Shown here piece after piece: positions 4,457 to 46,259 of a DNA stretch of 64,000 nt. Positions within the stretch are counted from its first letter, which is position 1, and each line of letters starts with the position of its first letter. The translations under genes were made by a program, and so were the position numbers. Source of the DNA: Clostridia bacterium (GTDB taxonomy: Bacteria > Bacillota > Clostridia > Oscillospirales > CAG-272); contig JAFVUF010000017.1 in NCBI GenBank assembly GCA_017502875.1, positions 32,772 through 96,771 on the forward strand. Direction: 5' to 3'. The notes under the pieces are model-generated. The model searched no databases and was not told the origin of the DNA. It worked only from the letters and a program-made list of their open reading frames with translations.

Positions 4457-4984
4457 TTAGATAATGCGCTCGATCTGATTTGATTTGAGATCGACGGGAG
4501 TGCTTCTTCCAAACATGGAAGCGAGAACCGTAACAGTCTTCTTATCGTCGGATATAGACTGAACGACTCCGGAGTAGTTAGCGAGAGGACCGTCAATAAT
4601 CTTAACGGAGTCGCCAACCTCATAATCAAGAGTTACCACGGAAACCTCGATTCCCATTCTCGAGACCTCCTCGTCCGTAAGCGGAACCGGCTTGGAACCG
4701 GGGCCAACGAAGCCTGTAACACCCGTTATGTTTCTTACGACGTGCCAGTTAGCATCGTTCATAAGCATTTTTACGAGAACGTAGCTGGGCATAAGCTTTG
4801 CCTCGTACTCTTTATCACCGTCCATGCGAATTTCAACAGGAACAACGACGTCAACAATCTCGTCCTGAAGCTCGCGGTTTTCGATAATCTTTTCGAGGTT
4901 AGCCTTTACCTTGTTTTCGTATCCCGTGAAGGTGTGAACCACATACCAACGTATCTCTGGGATTGCATCGTTGAAATCACTCAT
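4457..4984 (-). CDS. nusG: Transcription termination/antitermination factor NusG
   Basis: 175-aa ORF with an NGN domain (WYVVHTFTGYENKVK) and a KOW motif (VGDSVKIIDGPLANYSGVV). It sits in the conserved secE-nusG-rplK order. Confidence 0.95.
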   Translation of the reverse strand: MSDFNDAIPEIRWYVVHTFTGYENKVKANLEKIIENRELQDEIVDVVVPVEIRMDGDKEYEAKLMPSYVLVKMLMNDANWHVVRNITGVTGFVGPGSKPVPLTDEEVSRMGIEVSVVTLDYEVGDSVKIIDGPLANYSGVVQSISDDKKTVTVLASMFGRSTPVDLKSNQIERII

Positions 4985-18762: not shown

Positions 18763-18777
18763 TTTAAAAAATATTTT

Positions 18778-19146
18778 GAGTGGACGGCGCAATTGCGTAA
18801 TATGTTGCCGAAAGGTATTATTGCGAGGAAAGTCCGGGCTTCATAGGGCAGGATAACTGATAACGTCAGCCGAGGGTGACCTCCGGGAAAGTGCAACAGA
18901 AATAAACCGCCGAGTTTTACTCGGTAAGGATGGAAAGGCGAGGTAAGAGCTCACCGGCAGCTTGGTAACAAGCTTGCAAATGTAAACCCTATCCGAAGCA
19001 ACACCGTAATGTGAAAGGAGCATAAGCTCACGTTTGCCCGACGGAATTTCATAGGTGGCGAGGAGCTTTATGGCGACATAAAGCCAAGATAGATAATTGC
19101 GGTCGGTTTTTAAAGCCGTCACAGAACCCGGCTTACAAGTCCACTC
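18778..19146 (+). ncRNA. rnpB: RNase P RNA, bacterial type A
   Basis: P1 pairing GAGTGGAC...GTCCACTC. Universal motifs GAGGAAAGTCCGGGCT, AGTGCAACAGA, GGTAAGAGCTCACC and ACAGAACCCGGCTTA are colinear with the E. coli M1 RNA layout. Confidence 0.93.
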
Positions 19147-19157
19147 AAAACCATTTT

Positions 19158-33919: not shown

Positions 33920-35746
33920 ATGATAGCAATTGGATGTGAAAACATTTCTCTTTCATTCGGCGTTGACGTGATTTTGGATAAGGTTACGTTCAGTATAAAT
34001 GAAGGGGAGAGGCTTGGAATAGTCGGTGTTAACGGAGCTGGCAAAACCTCGCTTATCCGTATTCTTACGGGTGAGGCCGAGTCTGACGGGGGAAACGTTT
34101 ATATAGCGAAAAACGCTTCGGTGGGTGTGCTTAAGCAGCACGTCGGATATGAGAGCGAAAACGACGTTTATACGGCGCTTGTTTCCGAGTTTGACTTAAC
34201 TGAATTTAACGATATAAACGAGCTTGAAAAGAAAAAAGGGGAGTATATAAGTAGGGTAAAGGGATTTCTTAAAAACCTTGGATTTTCTGAGGACGAGATG
34301 TTTAATACTCCCGTAAGCGCATTAAGCGGCGGGCAGAAAACGAGAATAGCACTTGCGTCGCTTCTTCTTAAAAACCATGATATTCTTATACTCGACGAGC
34401 CCACTAACCATCTTGATATTTCGGCGCTCGCGTGGCTTGAGGAGCATATAAAAGCGATAAAGAAGACCGTTCTCGTTATCTCACACGACAGGTATTTTCT
34501 TGACAAGGTAACTACAAAAACACTTGAAATAGAGAATAAGAAGGCAAAGCTCTATAACGGTAATTACAGCTTTTATGCCAACCAAAAGAAGACTGATAGA
34601 GAAATCCAGGAAAAGCATTACAAAAATCAGCAAAAGGAAATAGCAAGGATAGAGGCGTACATTGAAAATCAGCGCCGCTGGAACAGAGAAAGAAACATAA
34701 TAGCCGCTGAAAGCAGGCAGAAGCAGCTTGATAAAATGGTTCGTGAAAAGCGCCCTGAGGCGCTTCCGGACAAGATTAAGCTTTCATTTGGTTCGGCTGG
34801 GCGTTCGGGAGACGACGTTCTTGCTCTGAGAGGAATAACTAAATCCTTTGGGAATAAAAATTTGTTTTCCGATATAGCCTTTGAGCTGCATTACAAGGAT
34901 AGAATGTTCCTTTTCGGTGAAAACGGCTGTGGAAAATCAACGCTTATAAAGATAATTGCAGGCAGAATACCCGCTGATAAGGGCGTGGTTGATATTGGAT
35001 ATAACGTTTATCCAGCGTATTATGACCAGGAAAACCAGGACCTTTGCAATGAAAATACCGTAATGGACGAGCTTTGGAGTATGAATGAAACGTTGTCTCC
35101 TGGTGAAATACGGGGTATTTTAGCGAGGTTTTTATTCCGCGGAGATGACTGCTTTAAGGTGGTTGGAACGCTTTCAGGAGGCGAAAGAGCAAGGCTGACC
35201 TTCGCCAAGCTTTTGATGTCAAAAAGTAACCTTTTAATACTTGACGAGCCTACGAATCATCTTGATATTGATAGCCGCGAGGCGCTTGAAAACGCGCTTT
35301 TTGAGTACGAGGGAACCATAATTGCGGTAAGCCATGACCGTTACTTTATAGATAAGCTTTCTACAAGAATGATGGTTTTCAATGCTCAGGAAAAGGGTAA
35401 GCTTTTTGATTATAAGGGCGGTTACAGCGACTACGTTGCGTATAGCGAGCAATATATGTCATCAGAGAACGCAGGCACAAACGAGCAGACTGTTTCGACA
35501 TCGAAAGCCGAATTTATGAACAAAAAAGCAGAGCTTGCCGAAAAGCGAAAGCTTCAAAACAAAATCGAGCGTTCAAAAAAAGAGGTTGTAGAGATTGAAG
35601 CAAGAATGACCGAGATTGATAAGGAGTGCGAAGCTGCGGCAACCGATCATAATAGACTTTCGCAGCTTTATGAAGAAAAGGAACGCTTAGATGAAAGATT
35701 GCTTGAGCTATATGAGTTCCTGACGGACAATGGAATTGAATTATAA
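33920..35746 (+). CDS. ABC-F family ATPase (two ABC cassettes, no TM domain, C-terminal coiled coil)
   Basis: Walker A GVNGAGKTS and GENGCGKST, signature LSGGQKTR / LSGGERAR, an inter-domain linker and a charged C-terminal helix. Confidence 0.9.
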   Translation: MIAIGCENISLSFGVDVILDKVTFSINEGERLGIVGVNGAGKTSLIRILTGEAESDGGNVYIAKNASVGVLKQHVGYESENDVYTALVSEFDLTEFNDINELEKKKGEYISRVKGFLKNLGFSEDEMFNTPVSALSGGQKTRIALASLLLKNHDILILDEPTNHLDISALAWLEEHIKAIKKTVLVISHDRYFLDKVTTKTLEIENKKAKLYNGNYSFYANQKKTDREIQEKHYKNQQKEIARIEAYIENQRRWNRERNIIAAESRQKQLDKMVREKRPEALPDKIKLSFGSAGRSGDDVLALRGITKSFGNKNLFSDIAFELHYKDRMFLFGENGCGKSTLIKIIAGRIPADKGVVDIGYNVYPAYYDQENQDLCNENTVMDELWSMNETLSPGEIRGILARFLFRGDDCFKVVGTLSGGERARLTFAKLLMSKSNLLILDEPTNHLDIDSREALENALFEYEGTIIAVSHDRYFIDKLSTRMMVFNAQEKGKLFDYKGGYSDYVAYSEQYMSSENAGTNEQTVSTSKAEFMNKKAELAEKRKLQNKIERSKKEVVEIEARMTEIDKECEAAATDHNRLSQLYEEKERLDERLLELYEFLTDNGIEL

Positions 35747-35751
35747 AAAAC

Positions 35752-35783
35752 AAAAGCACCGAAATCGGTGCTTTTAATTTTTT
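35752..35783 (+). terminator. Rho-independent terminator
   Basis: AAAAGCACCG-AAAT-CGGTGCTTTT followed by AATTTTTT. Confidence 0.8.
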
Positions 35784-35840
35784 AACTACATATTATACTA
35801 AATAATAATTATTTGATAATAATGTGTTTTATAAAAAATT

Positions 35841-36100
35841 AACGGGAGCGTTTATTATGACCAAATATATTAATCGGAAGCTCCCATTAAGAAATATGCC
35901 TAACAGCTAATGGGAGCGCTTGGTATGAGTAAATGTATTAATCGGAAGCTCCCATTAAGAAATACGGCTCACAGCCAATGGGAACGTTTGGTATGAGTAA
36001 ATGTATTAATCGGGGGCTCCCATTAAGAAATAAGGTTCACAGCCAATGGGAGCGCTTGGCATGAGTAAATGTATTAGCCGGAAGCTCCCATTAAGAAATA
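35841..36100 (+). repeat. Four tandem 68-bp units, each with a GGGAG SD-like motif, an ATG small ORF and a 9-bp-stem hairpin
   Basis: Unit starts at 35841, 35909, 35977 and 36045. Consensus AATGGGAGCGYTTGGTATGAGTAAATGTATTAATCGGAAGCTCCCATTAAGAAATAYGGYTCACAGCC. Small ORFs at 35857-35910, 35925-35996, 35993-36064 and 36061-36270. Confidence 0.9.
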
Positions 36101-36272
36101 TGGAAAATACAAACGTTAAATTTAAAAATAACTTAGATATATATAATCCCCTATGTTTATGTTCTCTCTATTCTGCTAAACTTTCATTTAGTATAATAAG
36201 CAATGTGTGTTTTGCGGGAAACAGAAAAATGCGACAGTTGATTCTCTCAGCTATTACACTTCTCCGCTAAGT

Positions 36273-36298
36273 AATATTTTCAAATCTGTTCGCATATA
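36273..36298 (+). promoter_or_regulatory. Candidate sigma-E type promoter of the spoIIIA operon
   Basis: AATATT (36273-36278), 14 nt, CATATA-T (36293-36299), resembling the ATATT-N14-CATACA-T forespore-engulfment-stage mother-cell promoter pattern. It lies ~35 nt upstream of spoIIIAA. Confidence 0.4.
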
Positions 36299-36334
36299 TT
36301 TGAAGAAAGACGGACAAGCCGAGGAGGTCTACCA

Positions 36335-37234
36335 ATGCTTAAAGATTACACTGATATAAAAATGAAAATGCTTAGCTATGCCGTTTCGTTGCTTCCGGAA
36401 AGATTTCGCTCAGCCTGCAATAACTACCTTCTTGCTTATCCTGATATTTGTGAAATACGACTGCGTATAGACTCTCCGCTTTCATTTACTCTTTCTGCAA
36501 GCAATCTGATTACCGGTATGATGATAAGCCGTGAGGATATCCGTTTTACTCTTGATAAGATGACTGACGGTAATTATTTTAAAAACGAGGAGCTTATGAG
36601 AGGCGGTTATATCAGTCTTTTGTACGGAATTCGTGTTGGTGTATGCGGCGACGTTTTTGTAAGCGGTGGCGCAGTAAAAACGTTAAAATATGTAAATTAC
36701 ATAAATATCCGATTACCGTCAGCCTTTATTTCCGACTGCTCTCCCCTGATTTCTTATATTGAAAGCTCATTGTTTTCGGCTTCTGTACTTGTTATTTCAC
36801 CGCCATGCTGCGGTAAAACCACACTTTTGCGTTCTGCTGCGCTAACACTTGCAAGCGCGCCTTACAATAAGCGTGTTTGTGTGGTTGATACCAACAGAGA
36901 GCTGCTTCTCCCCTCCTCGTTTGGTGTCGGTCTATGTGAATATATGGTTGGTTATCCAAAGGCTTACGGTATTAACGTAGCGATGAGATATATGAATCCA
37001 CAGTATATTATTTGTGATGAAATAGGTGGAAGCGATGAGGCTGAGGCTATATGCGAGCTTCAGCATTCCGGAGTTCCCTTTCTTGCCTCTGCTCACGCGG
37101 ACACGTTTGCTTCACTTAAAATGCGTAAAAATATAGATATTATGCTCCAAAACGGTGTTTTTGAGGCTGTTTTGAGAATAAAAAGGACAGGGAAATCCTT
37201 TGAATACGAAATTAAAAGGGTGAGTGAATTATGA
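36335..37234 (+). CDS. spoIIIAA: Stage III sporulation protein AA (ATPase)
   Basis: 299 aa with Walker A SPPCCGKTTLLR. First gene of a colinear AA-AG set with overlapping starts and stops. Confidence 0.88.
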   Translation: MLKDYTDIKMKMLSYAVSLLPERFRSACNNYLLAYPDICEIRLRIDSPLSFTLSASNLITGMMISREDIRFTLDKMTDGNYFKNEELMRGGYISLLYGIRVGVCGDVFVSGGAVKTLKYVNYINIRLPSAFISDCSPLISYIESSLFSASVLVISPPCCGKTTLLRSAALTLASAPYNKRVCVVDTNRELLLPSSFGVGLCEYMVGYPKAYGINVAMRYMNPQYIICDEIGGSDEAEAICELQHSGVPFLASAHADTFASLKMRKNIDIMLQNGVFEAVLRIKRTGKSFEYEIKRVSEL

Positions 37235-43283: not shown

Positions 43284-45080
43284 ATGGCAGAATTACTCAG
43301 TAAAAACGATAAAAGAACAAAGTATTGCGGAGAGTTTTCGACAGCTGACATAGGCTCAAGCGTGTGCGTTATGGGTTGGGCTCAGAAGCAAAGAGACCTC
43401 GGCGGTCTTATCTTCATTGACCTTCGTGATAGAAGCGGTATAATTCAGCTTGCCTTCGACGAGAACACTCCTGAGGAGGTATATAAGTCCGCTTTTAAAG
43501 TAAGAAGCGAGTTTGTTCTCTGCGCTAAGGGTGTTGTACGAGCCAGAGGCGAGGGCGCGGTAAATAAGAATATTCCCACAGGCGAAATAGAAATAGCTGT
43601 AAATGAGCTTAAAATCCTTTCCGCTGCGGCTACTCCCCCATTTGCTATTGTCGAAAACAGCGACGTTAAGGCTGAGCTTCGCTTAAAGCACCGTTACCTT
43701 GACCTTCGCCGCCCCGATATGCAAAGCCGTATCATTGCGAGAAGTAAGATAGCTAAGATAACCCGCGACTACTTTGAGGAGCAGGGCTTTATCGAAATAG
43801 AAACGCCTAACCTCGTTAAGCCTACGCCTGAGGGAGCAAGAGATTACCTTGTTCCCAGCCGAGTTCATCCCGGCTCCTTCTATGCGCTTCCCCAATCTCC
43901 CCAGCTTTATAAGCAGCTTCTTATGCTTTCGGGCTTCGACCGCTATCTCCAGATTGCGAGATGCTACCGTGATGAAGACCTGCGCGCTGACCGTCAGCCT
44001 GAGTTTACCCAGATTGACGAGGAGCTTTCATTTGTAACGCAGGACGACGTTATTGAAATAAACGAGGGATTTTTAAAGAGAGTTTTCAAGGAGTTCCTCG
44101 GCAGAGATATAGAGCTTCCCCTCCCCCGTATGACATATGCGGAGGCAATGGAACGTTTTGGCTCTGATAAGCCTGACCTTCGCTTTGGATATGAGCTTAA
44201 AAACCTTTCCGAAATTGTTAAGAACAGTGAATTCAAGGTGTTCTCCGGCGCCGTTGAGGCAGGCGGCTCGGTACGCGCTATCAATATCGATGGCGGCGCA
44301 AGGATGTCCAGAAAAGAGATAGATTCCCTTGTTGAGTTTGTAAAGACCTATCGCGCGAAGGGACTTGCGTGGTATAAGTACGCAGAGGACGGAACATTCT
44401 CATCGTCTTACGCGAAATTCCTTACAGATGATGAAAATAAGGCTATCCTTGACGCTATGAACGCAAAGCCGGGAGACCTTATCCTTATCGTTGCCGACGC
44501 AAAGAATAACGTAGTATTCGACTCTCTCGGCGCTCTTCGCCGTGAGATTGCGTTCCGACTTAACGTTATCAAGCCCGGAGATTTCAAGATGCTCTGGATA
44601 ACCGAGTTCCCGCTTCTTGAGTATGATGACGAGGACGGACGCTTCTACGCCAAGCACCACCCCTTCACAATGCCTATGGAGGAGGATTTAGAGTATCTTG
44701 ATACCGATCCCGGCAGAGTCCGTGCTATCGCTTATGATATCGTTATTAACGGTACAGAGGCAGGCGGTGGCTCAGTCCGTATAAATATTCCCGAAATTCA
44801 GCAGAAGATGTTCTCCGTTCTCGGAATGGAAAAGGAGGAATACGAGGAAAAGTTCGGATTCCTGCTTGAAGCATACCGCTACGGCGCGCCTCCGCACGCA
44901 GGACTTGCCTTCGGCTTTGACCGTCTTGTTTCTCTCCTCCTTGAAATTGAGGATATACGCGACGTAATTGCCTTCCCGAAGGTTCAGAACGCAAGCGAGC
45001 TTATGACGGGCGCTCCCGCCCCAACAGATATGAAAGCGCTAAATGAGCTTTCTATTGCTGTTGTTAATGAAGAAGAATAA
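43284..45080 (+). CDS. aspS: Aspartate--tRNA ligase
   Basis: 598 aa with an OB-fold N-terminus, FYALPQSPQLYKQLLM, CYRDEDLRADRQPEFTQID and GGGSVRI. Confidence 0.96.
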   Translation: MAELLSKNDKRTKYCGEFSTADIGSSVCVMGWAQKQRDLGGLIFIDLRDRSGIIQLAFDENTPEEVYKSAFKVRSEFVLCAKGVVRARGEGAVNKNIPTGEIEIAVNELKILSAAATPPFAIVENSDVKAELRLKHRYLDLRRPDMQSRIIARSKIAKITRDYFEEQGFIEIETPNLVKPTPEGARDYLVPSRVHPGSFYALPQSPQLYKQLLMLSGFDRYLQIARCYRDEDLRADRQPEFTQIDEELSFVTQDDVIEINEGFLKRVFKEFLGRDIELPLPRMTYAEAMERFGSDKPDLRFGYELKNLSEIVKNSEFKVFSGAVEAGGSVRAINIDGGARMSRKEIDSLVEFVKTYRAKGLAWYKYAEDGTFSSSYAKFLTDDENKAILDAMNAKPGDLILIVADAKNNVVFDSLGALRREIAFRLNVIKPGDFKMLWITEFPLLEYDDEDGRFYAKHHPFTMPMEEDLEYLDTDPGRVRAIAYDIVINGTEAGGGSVRINIPEIQQKMFSVLGMEKEEYEEKFGFLLEAYRYGAPPHAGLAFGFDRLVSLLLEIEDIRDVIAFPKVQNASELMTGAPAPTDMKALNELSIAVVNEEE

Positions 45081-45122
45081 AAAGGTCGTCGTAACATAAA
45101 AAGACAAAAAAGCAAAGAAAAA

Positions 45123-45154
45123 GAGGAGCTTCTAGCGAAAAGCTCCTCATTTTT
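45123..45154. terminator. Bidirectional terminator
   Basis: GAGGAGCTT-N8-AAGCTCCTC is flanked by an A-run and a T-run. It lies between the convergent aspS and glycosyltransferase genes. Confidence 0.8.
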
Positions 45155-45161
45155 ATGTGAT

Positions 45162-46259
45162 TTATTTGCATGCTACTTCAAATAGCTTCTCAGCAGCATT
45201 CTTTTTACCGAGCAATGAAGCTGAATGAGCAAGTGAAGCGCGGAGGTTGCTGTTAGTTAAAAAGTCTTTAACCGCCTCGTCAACCTTTTTGTCTTTCGAT
45301 ATTTCGATAGCCGCGCCGTTGTCAACAATAAAGCGAAGATTTCTCTCCTCATGTCCGGGAATTGGGTGAGATAGTATCATCGGTAACTCACGTGAAAGTG
45401 ATTCAGAAACTGATAATCCGCCGGGTTTAGTGATAATACAGTCCGATGCATCCATAATGATATTAATTTTATCAGTAAACCCAAGCTTAATAACCTTATG
45501 TTTAAAATGCTCCCTTTCGAGCTTTTTTAGTTCCTTTTTTGATGAGCCGCAGACAGCGACTATCTGGAAGCAGCTATTGATTTTATCAAGCGCCTTTACG
45601 GTATTCGTAAGACCTCCGTAGCACATACTGCCGCTCATTACTGTAATAACAGGTTTGTCGGGCATAAGACCGATCTGTTCTCTTGCCTCTGATTTGGTCA
45701 AAACATTAGAAAACTTCTGCTGTATCGGCACTCCGATAGGAAGTATCTGCTCCGGCTTATATCCCTTAGCTATGCACTCGTCAGCAAGCTTTTCCGAGGG
45801 AATAACGATGTAATCAATCGCAGTCGCTTCCTCCCAATACGGATGGAGCGTAAAGTCTGTAAGTATGCCAATAGTTTTTGCGTTAAGCTCACCGCTTAAA
45901 ATAAAGGGTTTAATCACCATAGCGGCAAGTACGTGCGTACACACCACAACGTCGGGCGCATATTCAAGCAGTTGCTCCTTGTACTTTTTAGAAAGGTAGG
46001 AAGCAAGGCGAACAGTAACGTCCTTCTTCCCCGCTTCTCTTTCAAGCAGCTTGGTGTAGACAACAGAATAAGGCTTTTTCAGTAATTTGACAGAGGCAAG
46101 ATAGCCTTTGTCAATAATAAAACCAATAGCTTTGTTGTTTTCGTAGCATATATCAACTATCTTACATTCATTTCCGTTTTGGGAGAATGCTGTTTTTACA
46201 GCAGCGGCAGTAGAATTATGACCGTAACCTGCGGTAACTGTTAGAATAAGAGTTTTCAT
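45162..46259 (-). CDS. Glycolipid (MGDG/diglucosyl-DAG synthase-like) glycosyltransferase
   Basis: 365 aa. N-terminus ILTVTAGYGHNSTAAAV is typical of the MGDG synthase/UgtP family, with a GT-B C-terminal half. Confidence 0.75.
   Translation of the reverse strand: MKTLILTVTAGYGHNSTAAAVKTAFSQNGNECKIVDICYENNKAIGFIIDKGYLASVKLLKKPYSVVYTKLLEREAGKKDVTVRLASYLSKKYKEQLLEYAPDVVVCTHVLAAMVIKPFILSGELNAKTIGILTDFTLHPYWEEATAIDYIVIPSEKLADECIAKGYKPEQILPIGVPIQQKFSNVLTKSEAREQIGLMPDKPVITVMSGSMCYGGLTNTVKALDKINSCFQIVAVCGSSKKELKKLEREHFKHKVIKLGFTDKINIIMDASDCIITKPGGLSVSESLSRELPMILSHPIPGHEERNLRFIVDNGAAIEISKDKKVDEAVKDFLTNSNLRASLAHSASLLGKKNAAEKLFEVACK

Follow-up and report, generated by a model that had tools for sequence, protein, structure and literature searches.

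A tandem array in the gap upstream of spoIIIA

We analysed a 64-kb stretch of the Clostridia bacterium contig JAFVUF010000017.1 (the window), in which a 68-bp tandem array lies between an ABC-F ATPase gene and the spoIIIA operon. The gap between the ABC-F stop codon and the spoIIIAA ATG is 588 nt, in agreement with the ~590 bp given in an initial annotation of this DNA. Tandem Repeats Finder reported the array at 35844-36103 with a period of 68, 3.8 copies, 87% matches, 0% indels and a score of 387. A separate repeat search also gave a 68-bp spacing from 35841 together with complementary arms, and the two results confirm the exact 68-bp period that had been described from this position. The array is the strongest repeat of the window, with every other Tandem Repeats Finder row scoring 54 or less. 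Four units had been proposed. Three of them are full, and the unit alignments revealed that the fourth, U4, is shortened and ends after approximately column 58, giving an array length of about 3.8-3.85 copies of 68 bp. The coordinates are collected in Table 1.

Each unit carries two 9-nt arms, AATGGGAGC on the left and GCTCCCATT on the right, which can pair within the unit or between adjacent units. The arms of the 9-bp stem that had been assigned to each unit are thus present; exact left arms occur in two of the four units, and the mismatches in U1 and U3 are both uncompensated. The loop of the within-unit hairpin measures 30 nt rather than ~31 nt. Alternatively, each right arm can pair with the left arm of the next unit, leaving a loop of 18-20 nt, and since the right arm pairs in two ways, the hairpin register is ambiguous. 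The right arm and its flank make up a 17-mer, GCTCCCATTAAGAAATA, which is unchanged in all seven units of the two alleles described below; no other invariant stretch of the unit is as long. Exact copies of AATGGGAGC number six on both strands of the window, all inside the array. Matches with one mismatch number ten outside the array, in line with the 12 +/- 3.3 expected by chance in the whole window.

A Shine-Dalgarno (SD)-like GGGAG lies 8 nt before an ATG in every unit. The small open reading frames (ORFs), the ATGA stop/start overlaps (at 35993 and 36061) and the last ORF running on to 36270 are as initially described, and 28-amino-acid versions of the ORFs starting at an ATG within the left arm are also listed. 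The four units are copies of a single sequence, so the set of SD, ATG and hairpin counts once and not four times. The array does not have the make-up of a CRISPR (clustered regularly interspaced short palindromic repeats) locus: the whole unit is repeated at 87-90% identity without unique spacers, and there is no cas gene in the gene table around the locus.

Table 1. Features of the locus (window coordinates) and palindrome copies in related contigs (contig coordinates)
Feature	Position	Strand	Remarks
ABC-F ATPase gene	33920-35746		Stop at 35746
Bidirectional intrinsic terminator	35752-35775		10-11-bp stem, T runs on both sides; 3' of the ABC-F gene
Extra palindrome arm, TATTATACTAAAT	35791-35803	.	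Just past the ABC-F terminator; left, attL-like boundary
Degenerate other arm, ATTTGATAATAATGTGTTTT	35811-35830		Part of the left boundary
365-nt segment	35804-36168	.	Between two palindrome copies: 37-nt AT-rich head, array, 66-nt tail
68-bp minisatellite	35841-36102	.	Three full units and one partial; Tandem Repeats Finder, unit alignments
Unit U1	35841-35908		
Unit U2	35909-35976		
Unit U3	35977-36044		
Unit U4	36045-36102		
U1 left arm, AACGGGAGC	35841-35849	+	One mismatch to the right arm
U2 left arm	35909-35917	+	Exact
U3 left arm, AATGGGAAC	35977-35985	+	One mismatch
U4 left arm	36045-36053	+	Exact
Right arm and flank, GCTCCCATTAAGAAATA	35880-35896	+	17-mer; again at 35948, 36016 and 36084
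Small ORF, first	35857-35910	+	
Small ORF, second	35925-35996	+	
Small ORF, third	35993-36064	+	
Small ORF, fourth	36061-36270	+	
Full palindrome, TATTCTGCTAAAC-TTTC-ATTTAGTATAATA	36169-36198	.	Three left-arm mismatches; right, attR- or attB-like boundary
spoIIIAA	36335-37234		ATG at 36335; rest of spoIIIA operon follows
Palindrome, L115	303-332		Perfect
Palindrome, L104	7875-7904		One mismatch (G, right arm)
Extra arm, L104	7481-7493		Same arrangement as the left boundary in the window
Palindrome, L118	142-171		Left arm degenerate
Palindrome, L096	4589-4618 and 9806-9818		Split by 5.2-kb element; 4589-4618 arranged like the left boundary in the window
Palindrome arm, L092	2398-2410		
Palindrome, L095	1-27		

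The array is polymorphic in copy number within the species

The array region is identical in the window and in two independent metagenome contigs, L001 and L002, with four units and a 588-nt gap. An allele with three units and a 520-nt gap was found on four JGI contigs from four samples (L100, L101, L102 and L110). The second SpoIIIAA variant, which belongs to the same 90% cluster, accounts for three of these samples, and an ABC-F variant adds the fourth. Units repeated head to tail, each of at least 10 bp, with a copy number that is polymorphic among strains (4 versus 3, in short-read assemblies) are what characterises a variable-number tandem repeat (VNTR). Between the alleles the ABC-F genes are 98.7% identical and the spoIIIAA genes 99.6% identical. 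Divergence is faster in the array, where matched units differ at 8 of 194 nt, than in the ABC-F gene (1.3%) or spoIIIAA (0.4%). Some strain-specific bases are common to the units of one strain, for example AGG and CCTGAC in units V1 and V2 of the three-unit allele, indicating concerted evolution.

Two further short-read contigs start inside the array (L003, at window position 36055) or just after it (L103, at 36114), so the array disrupts short-read assembly. This may be the reason that a scan of species-representative genomes did not return the locus.

The array is found in one species and at one locus

SpoIIIAA of the window is identical to a protein from an uncultured Clostridia metagenome-assembled genome. 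In the next relative it is 75% identical, and in the others at most 63%. The array is absent from all seven relatives at 56-75% SpoIIIAA identity (L092, L095, L096, L104, L106, L115 and L118). Absence from close relatives had been named in the initial annotation as an observation that would speak against its proposals, and in this respect that is what was observed. The start of the L118 contig (positions 2-10; SpoIIIAA 62%) contains AATGGGAGC, ~140 nt upstream of a palindrome described below. This stretch reads as the C-terminal end of an upstream ORF (..NGSTAFDQSITQGYAVKKAVK*) and has no further likeness to the unit, and we regard the match as probably due to chance.

A covariance model built on the seven units matched only the array in 164 kb of sequence comprising the window and the relatives. 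The 17-mer was scanned for exact matches in 185,579 species genomes, yielding 78 single matches compared to the ~70 that we estimate are expected by chance. Local alignment revealed that none of the 78 extends past the core, as expected of chance matches. A pattern scan of metagenomes with 19 specified bases returned one unrelated chance match. The same scan missed the JGI contigs that carry the array, showing that the JGI collection is incomplete for this organism and that this negative result is weaker than it appears. Viral scans (IMG/VR; the 16-mer and both hairpin registers) gave chance matches only, and blastn of the 365-nt segment that contains the array against phage and plasmid collections found nothing.

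These searches bear on whether the array is one cluster of a dispersed family of this genome, of the repetitive extragenic palindromic (REP)/bacterial interspersed mosaic element (BIME), miniature inverted-repeat transposable element (MITE) or mycobacterial interspersed repetitive unit (MIRU) type. The tandem units and alternating inverted arms just past the terminator of a gene are arranged as in BIME clusters, and the 4-nt overlaps of the unit ORFs recall MIRUs (PMC12548453). The unit ORFs are, however, uncoupled from both flanking genes, and a second copy is absent from the 64-kb window and from the 164 kb searched with the covariance model. Nothing was found in the species-representative genomes or in the metagenome and viral collections. 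At what we take to be the density of REPs in E. coli, ~1 per 8 kb, a family would give several copies in 64 kb, and none was seen. A dispersed REP- or MITE-type repeat, which the initial annotation had named as the other outcome that would undo its proposals, is thus unsupported by the 64 kb of this genome and by the species-genome, metagenome and viral scans, and we consider membership of such a family very unlikely.

The small ORFs show no sign of coding

The units had been suggested to encode tiny translated peptides. To examine this, substitutions between the two alleles were counted. The small ORFs contain six nonsynonymous changes and one synonymous change (two with the longer ORF version). 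In the two flanking genes, in contrast, there are seven nonsynonymous and 21 synonymous changes (Fisher p 0.006-0.016 versus the small ORFs). The 19 variable columns of the unit are spread 6/7/6 over the codon positions. Neither purifying selection nor the codon-position bias expected of a small-protein family was therefore detected. The 74-amino-acid ORF had no homologue among 5.8 billion protein clusters, itself included; it fails to match even itself because no gene caller ever called it. A Pfam search of the small ORFs gave nothing above the cut-off, and gene callers predicted no gene at the array in any contig. These results suggest that the small ORFs are probably not translated genes.

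The reading that they bring into question is one in which the units form a family of translationally coupled basic peptides of 17-23 amino acids with the consensus MSKCINRKLPLRN.... It accounts for the GGGAG placed 8 nt before an ATG in each unit, for the ATGA that links the ORFs of units 2 to 4, and for all small ORFs being intact in both alleles. The ATGA overlap nevertheless follows automatically from the period: 68 is 69 minus 1, so any ATGA in a stop-free unit yields a stop/start overlap. The peptides are hydrophilic, unlike type I toxins, and have no nearby maturase, unlike ribosomally synthesised and post-translationally modified peptides (RiPPs). RiPP precursors and type I toxins were accordingly dropped, as the array lacks their defining features. 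With the substitution counts, codon positions and empty searches added to these points, we consider the peptide family highly improbable.

Structure and constraint in the unit

Folding energies were calculated for both strands. The energy obtained was -16.6 kcal/mol for a single unit (z = -3.1) and -84 kcal/mol for the array as a whole (z = -4.8). Folding is almost as good on the minus strand (z = -4.1), as expected of any inverted repeat, and with DNA parameters the hairpins still form, at -8 and -6.9 kcal/mol. The 9-bp outer stem never covaries and contains the two uncompensated mismatches noted above. An inner helix of 5 bp pairs columns 12-16 with columns 33-37; it is G-U rich and forms on the plus strand only. 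One compensatory event is seen in it, in which U16-A33 becomes C-G in U4 and the corresponding V3, along with two one-sided supporting changes (GU to GC and UG to UA). The covariation score of the inner helix is reached by 31 of 500 shuffles, and the helix is broken in U1 and V1. Stem covariation is negligible.

No Rfam family matched the array at gathering thresholds, in line with the statement in the initial annotation that it was not recognised as any named element. At E<=10 there was one match in the array (35832-35984), with an E-value of 9.9 and far below the gathering score, and it looks like chance. The other Rfam matches at this threshold all lie outside the array, mostly on the ABC-F terminator. 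The integron attC, CsrA-sponge and cre, Fur or SpoIIID operator readings of the array were dropped because it lacks their defining features.

The multi-copy structured RNA that had also been put forward would be a plus-strand leader or small RNA with a two-tier hairpin in each unit. In the predicted fold, the 9-bp outer stem and the inner 5-bp stem would bury GGGAG and leave the ATG in an internal loop, and such an RNA could act as a multi-hairpin stabiliser, as a decoy, or in translation control of the tiny ORFs. The z scores of the unit and of the array are consistent with it, as are the strand-specific inner helix with its one two-sided change and the lack of a terminator from the array to spoIIIAA. 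Against it, the compensatory change happened once, in one corresponding unit, the covariation is equalled by the shuffles, the outer-stem mismatches are uncompensated, and the inner helix is broken in two units. The good fold of the minus strand, the lack of a meaningful Rfam match and the absence of the array from relatives also count against it. In addition, no convincing promoter was found upstream, and a strong bidirectional terminator precedes the array. We therefore regard a structured RNA as unlikely.

A duplicated palindrome brackets the array

A 13-4-13 palindrome, TATTATACTAAAT-N4-ATTTAGTATAATA, with TATAAT on both strands, is located ~110-200 nt upstream of the spoIIIAA start. It is kept in L104, L115, L118, L095, L092 and L096 although the other intergenic DNA does not align. 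In the window, the full copy is the sole match, with 0 expected by chance, and together with the extra arm past the ABC-F terminator it encloses the 365-nt segment that contains the array. The site is thus duplicated at both ends of the segment, as an attachment site would be, and in L096 it is occupied by an element. Both alleles carry the 365-nt segment. In the three-unit strain (L101 and L110) the same G-to-A change is found at both 35826 and 36209, altering the boundary copies from TGTGTTTT to TGTATTTT. At ~1% background divergence, the same change in both boundary copies suggests gene conversion or recombination between the boundaries.

L096 has the same synteny as the window, but with 5.2 kb between the ABC-F gene and spoIIIA. 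This 5.2-kb element is flanked by direct repeats of the palindrome core at 4601 and 9801. Its genes are for a Rep_OBD initiator of the rolling-circle type (E 1.3e-23), a 300-amino-acid P-loop ATPase with a weak Zot-like match and several small membrane proteins; no integrase was found in it. A non-coding hairpin at L096 4888-4918, CCACTTGCA-GCACTACGTG-TGCAAGTGG, is a candidate double-strand origin, and its loop GCACTACGTG resembles what we take to be the pMV158-type nick sequence, TACTACG/AC. The closest relative, L092, has a related Rep gene (50% identity) that abuts the same palindrome arm, and distant Rep relatives are found on IMG/VR contigs of 4.4-5.1 kb. Small filamentous-phage-like prophages of gut Clostridia have direct repeats on both sides (PMC10061712). 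The L096 insert is probably such a small filamentous-phage-like prophage. In L104, the same bracket encloses an unrelated, non-repetitive segment of ~380 nt. Neither the elements of L096 and L092 nor the L104 spacer shows sequence similarity to the 365-nt segment.

Possible roles of the palindrome are those of a host recombination site, an operator or a promoter. Its arms are inside-out compared to the dif consensus as we presume it to be, and a match to a chromosomal dif site was not confirmed. On the dif question, the cumulative GC-skew maximum is near 45 kb, ~9 kb from the palindrome, and not at 36 kb. This maximum, at window ~44000-46000 where the sign changes from plus to minus, could mean that genes switch orientation locally or that the replication terminus is near. 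A likeness of the repeat unit to the palindrome was also considered and was rejected, as it is not significant (p 0.13-0.87).

A phased array of eight 9-mer protein-binding half sites had been proposed as well. The array could work at the level of DNA or single-stranded DNA (ssDNA), as eight phased 9-10-mer sites or four hairpins for a protein of a mobile element. It might then serve the replication, packaging or partition of a miniature non-autonomous element that shares its palindromic attachment site with the Rep_OBD elements, or act as a decoy for such a protein. In favour of this, conservation within the unit is highest in the arms, with no variation at all in the right arm, the hairpins form with DNA parameters, and the array is bracketed by two copies of the site found on either side of the 5.2-kb element in L096. 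The shared G-to-A change also suggests that the boundaries still exchange sequence. On the other hand, tblastn with the L096 proteins detected no such Rep, partition or recombinase gene in the 64-kb window (E >= 0.15), and comparable repeats are absent from the relatives' elements and from distant Rep relatives. The candidate nick-site hairpin of L096 has no counterpart in the unit. The centres of the arms are 39 and 29 bp apart, which is an unusual spacing for proteins that bind DNA as dimers, and the likeness of the unit to the attachment site is not significant. Nor does the array have the features of a rolling-circle origin or iterons, as there is no Rep_OBD homologue in the window and the array is unlike the L096 and L092 elements. 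A role in DNA or ssDNA is, in our assessment, doubtful.

More specific versions of these proposals are weaker still. The 365-nt segment might be a miniature non-autonomous satellite that attaches at the 13-4-13 palindrome and has the hairpin units as its working part, which we think quite unlikely. We have equally little confidence that ssDNA or RNA hairpins of such a satellite would serve a filamentous-phage-like helper as recognition sites for its replication or packaging machinery, or would titrate that machinery as a decoy. A variant in which a plus-strand multi-hairpin RNA is made beside the spoIIIA promoter is just as speculative.

Neighbouring genes and signals

The terminator between the ABC-F gene and the array is strong. 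It attracts weak, meaningless Rfam small RNA matches, such as STnc40. The sole match in the window at the Rfam gathering score is a bacterial RNase P class A RNA at 18777-19151 (271 bits). No convincing sigma-70-type promoter was found 5' of the array, and no terminator between the array and spoIIIAA. The first unit starts 95 nt past the ABC-F stop, behind the terminator, and 65 nt separate the end of the last ORF from the spoIIIAA ATG.

A candidate sigma-E promoter of spoIIIAA, TAATATT-14 nt-CATATATT, was identified at 36272-36300, with the array ~170-430 nt upstream of it. The two motifs fit what we take to be the Bacillus sigma-E consensus, kmATATT / CATACAmT. Directly before the spoIIIAA ribosome-binding site, GGACAAGC at 36312-36319 fits a SpoIIID box. 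The sequence GCATATATT is kept upstream of spoIIIAA in L092, L095, L096, L104, L106 and L115, and is TCATATATT in L118. A remnant of the SpoIIID box, of the GACAAG type or a shorter ACAA, is present in most of the relatives' spoIIIAA upstream regions.

Discussion

On balance, we favour the explanation that the array is a young VNTR, specific to this lineage, that lies in cargo left behind by a mobile element and has neither a dedicated coding function nor a conserved regulatory one; we hold this to be somewhat on the probable side. A 68-bp piece carrying a chance 9-bp inverted repeat and an SD-like GGGAG followed by an ATG would have been duplicated head to tail. Copy number would then shift by replication slippage or unequal recombination, probably aided by the hairpin-forming arms, while gene conversion would partly homogenise the units. 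The 365-nt segment would be what remains of the cargo of a small element that had integrated between the ABC-F gene and spoIIIA, a hotspot of integration. Leftover cargo is its most likely nature, because it is bounded by copies of the palindrome and because the same site flanks the L096 element and adjoins the L092 Rep gene. The array, its polymorphism in copy number, its absence from relatives, the missing coding signal and the duplicated palindrome are shown by the data, whereas slippage as the mechanism, an origin from a mobile element and a lack of function are inferred.

Several observations weigh against this explanation. The right arm together with AAGAAATA is invariant in all seven units, a run of 17 with a permutation p of ~0.03, and the variable columns amount to 2 of 18 in the arms versus 17 of 50 in the rest of the unit (p 0.07). 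This is a weak hint of constraint, which selection might explain, as might gene conversion. The U16-A33 to C-G change and the two one-sided changes fit a plus-strand RNA helix, and every small ORF is still open in both alleles. In the three-unit allele, two identical units could have been collapsed during assembly. The search of the organism's own genome covered 64 kb, and the unit could be dispersed at low copy elsewhere in it. Finally, the relatives' elements do not resemble the array in sequence, and neither they nor four distant IMG/VR Rep relatives contain tandem arrays. As the array is unlike the relatives' elements, its mobile-element origin is argued from position.

The array is a polymorphic marker for one uncultured Clostridia species that breaks short-read assemblies, and is of little importance as it stands. 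The palindrome upstream of spoIIIAA and its use by Rep-encoding elements are the more promising lead. If the palindrome is indeed a host recombination site that filamentous-type phages of gut or rumen Clostridia use, the 365-nt segment would exemplify what such integrations leave behind. A general lesson is that an SD, an ATG and an occluding hairpin repeated in a tandem array are a single observation.

Comparison with known repeat systems

The array shares features with several repeat systems. MIRU units are tens of bp long, as here. They are also tandem intergenic units with a small ORF that has a 4-nt stop/start overlap (PMC12548453). MIRUs differ in that they are dispersed and their ORFs are coupled to flanking start codons, whereas the array is a single locus and its unit ORFs do not overlap the stop or start of a flanking gene. 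The REP and BIME sequences of enterobacteria consist of tandem, alternating inverted palindromic motifs with a period of ~70-80 bp just 3' of a gene, a layout like that of the array. BIMEs form families of hundreds of dispersed copies, whereas no other copy was detected for the array. The neisserial intergenic mosaic elements (NIMEs) with their dRS3 repeats are intergenic mosaics bounded by short repeated inverted-repeat sites into which small Nf filamentous prophages integrate, and the likeness is one of layout only. In NIMEs, dRS3 flanks each repeat unit; here, the palindrome brackets the whole 365-nt segment. The sopC site of F has 12 direct repeats of 43 bp that each contain an inverted repeat, as the units of the array do. 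In contrast to sopC and iteron arrays, the arms of the array are 30 bp apart instead of adjacent, and no par or rep gene adjoins it. Compared to VNTR and minisatellite loci, the array differs in its 9-bp inverted repeat with two registers and in being a solitary locus between duplicated palindrome copies. It shares with them the intergenic, head-to-tail and indel-free units of tens of bp, present in 4 versus 3 copies and partially homogenised.

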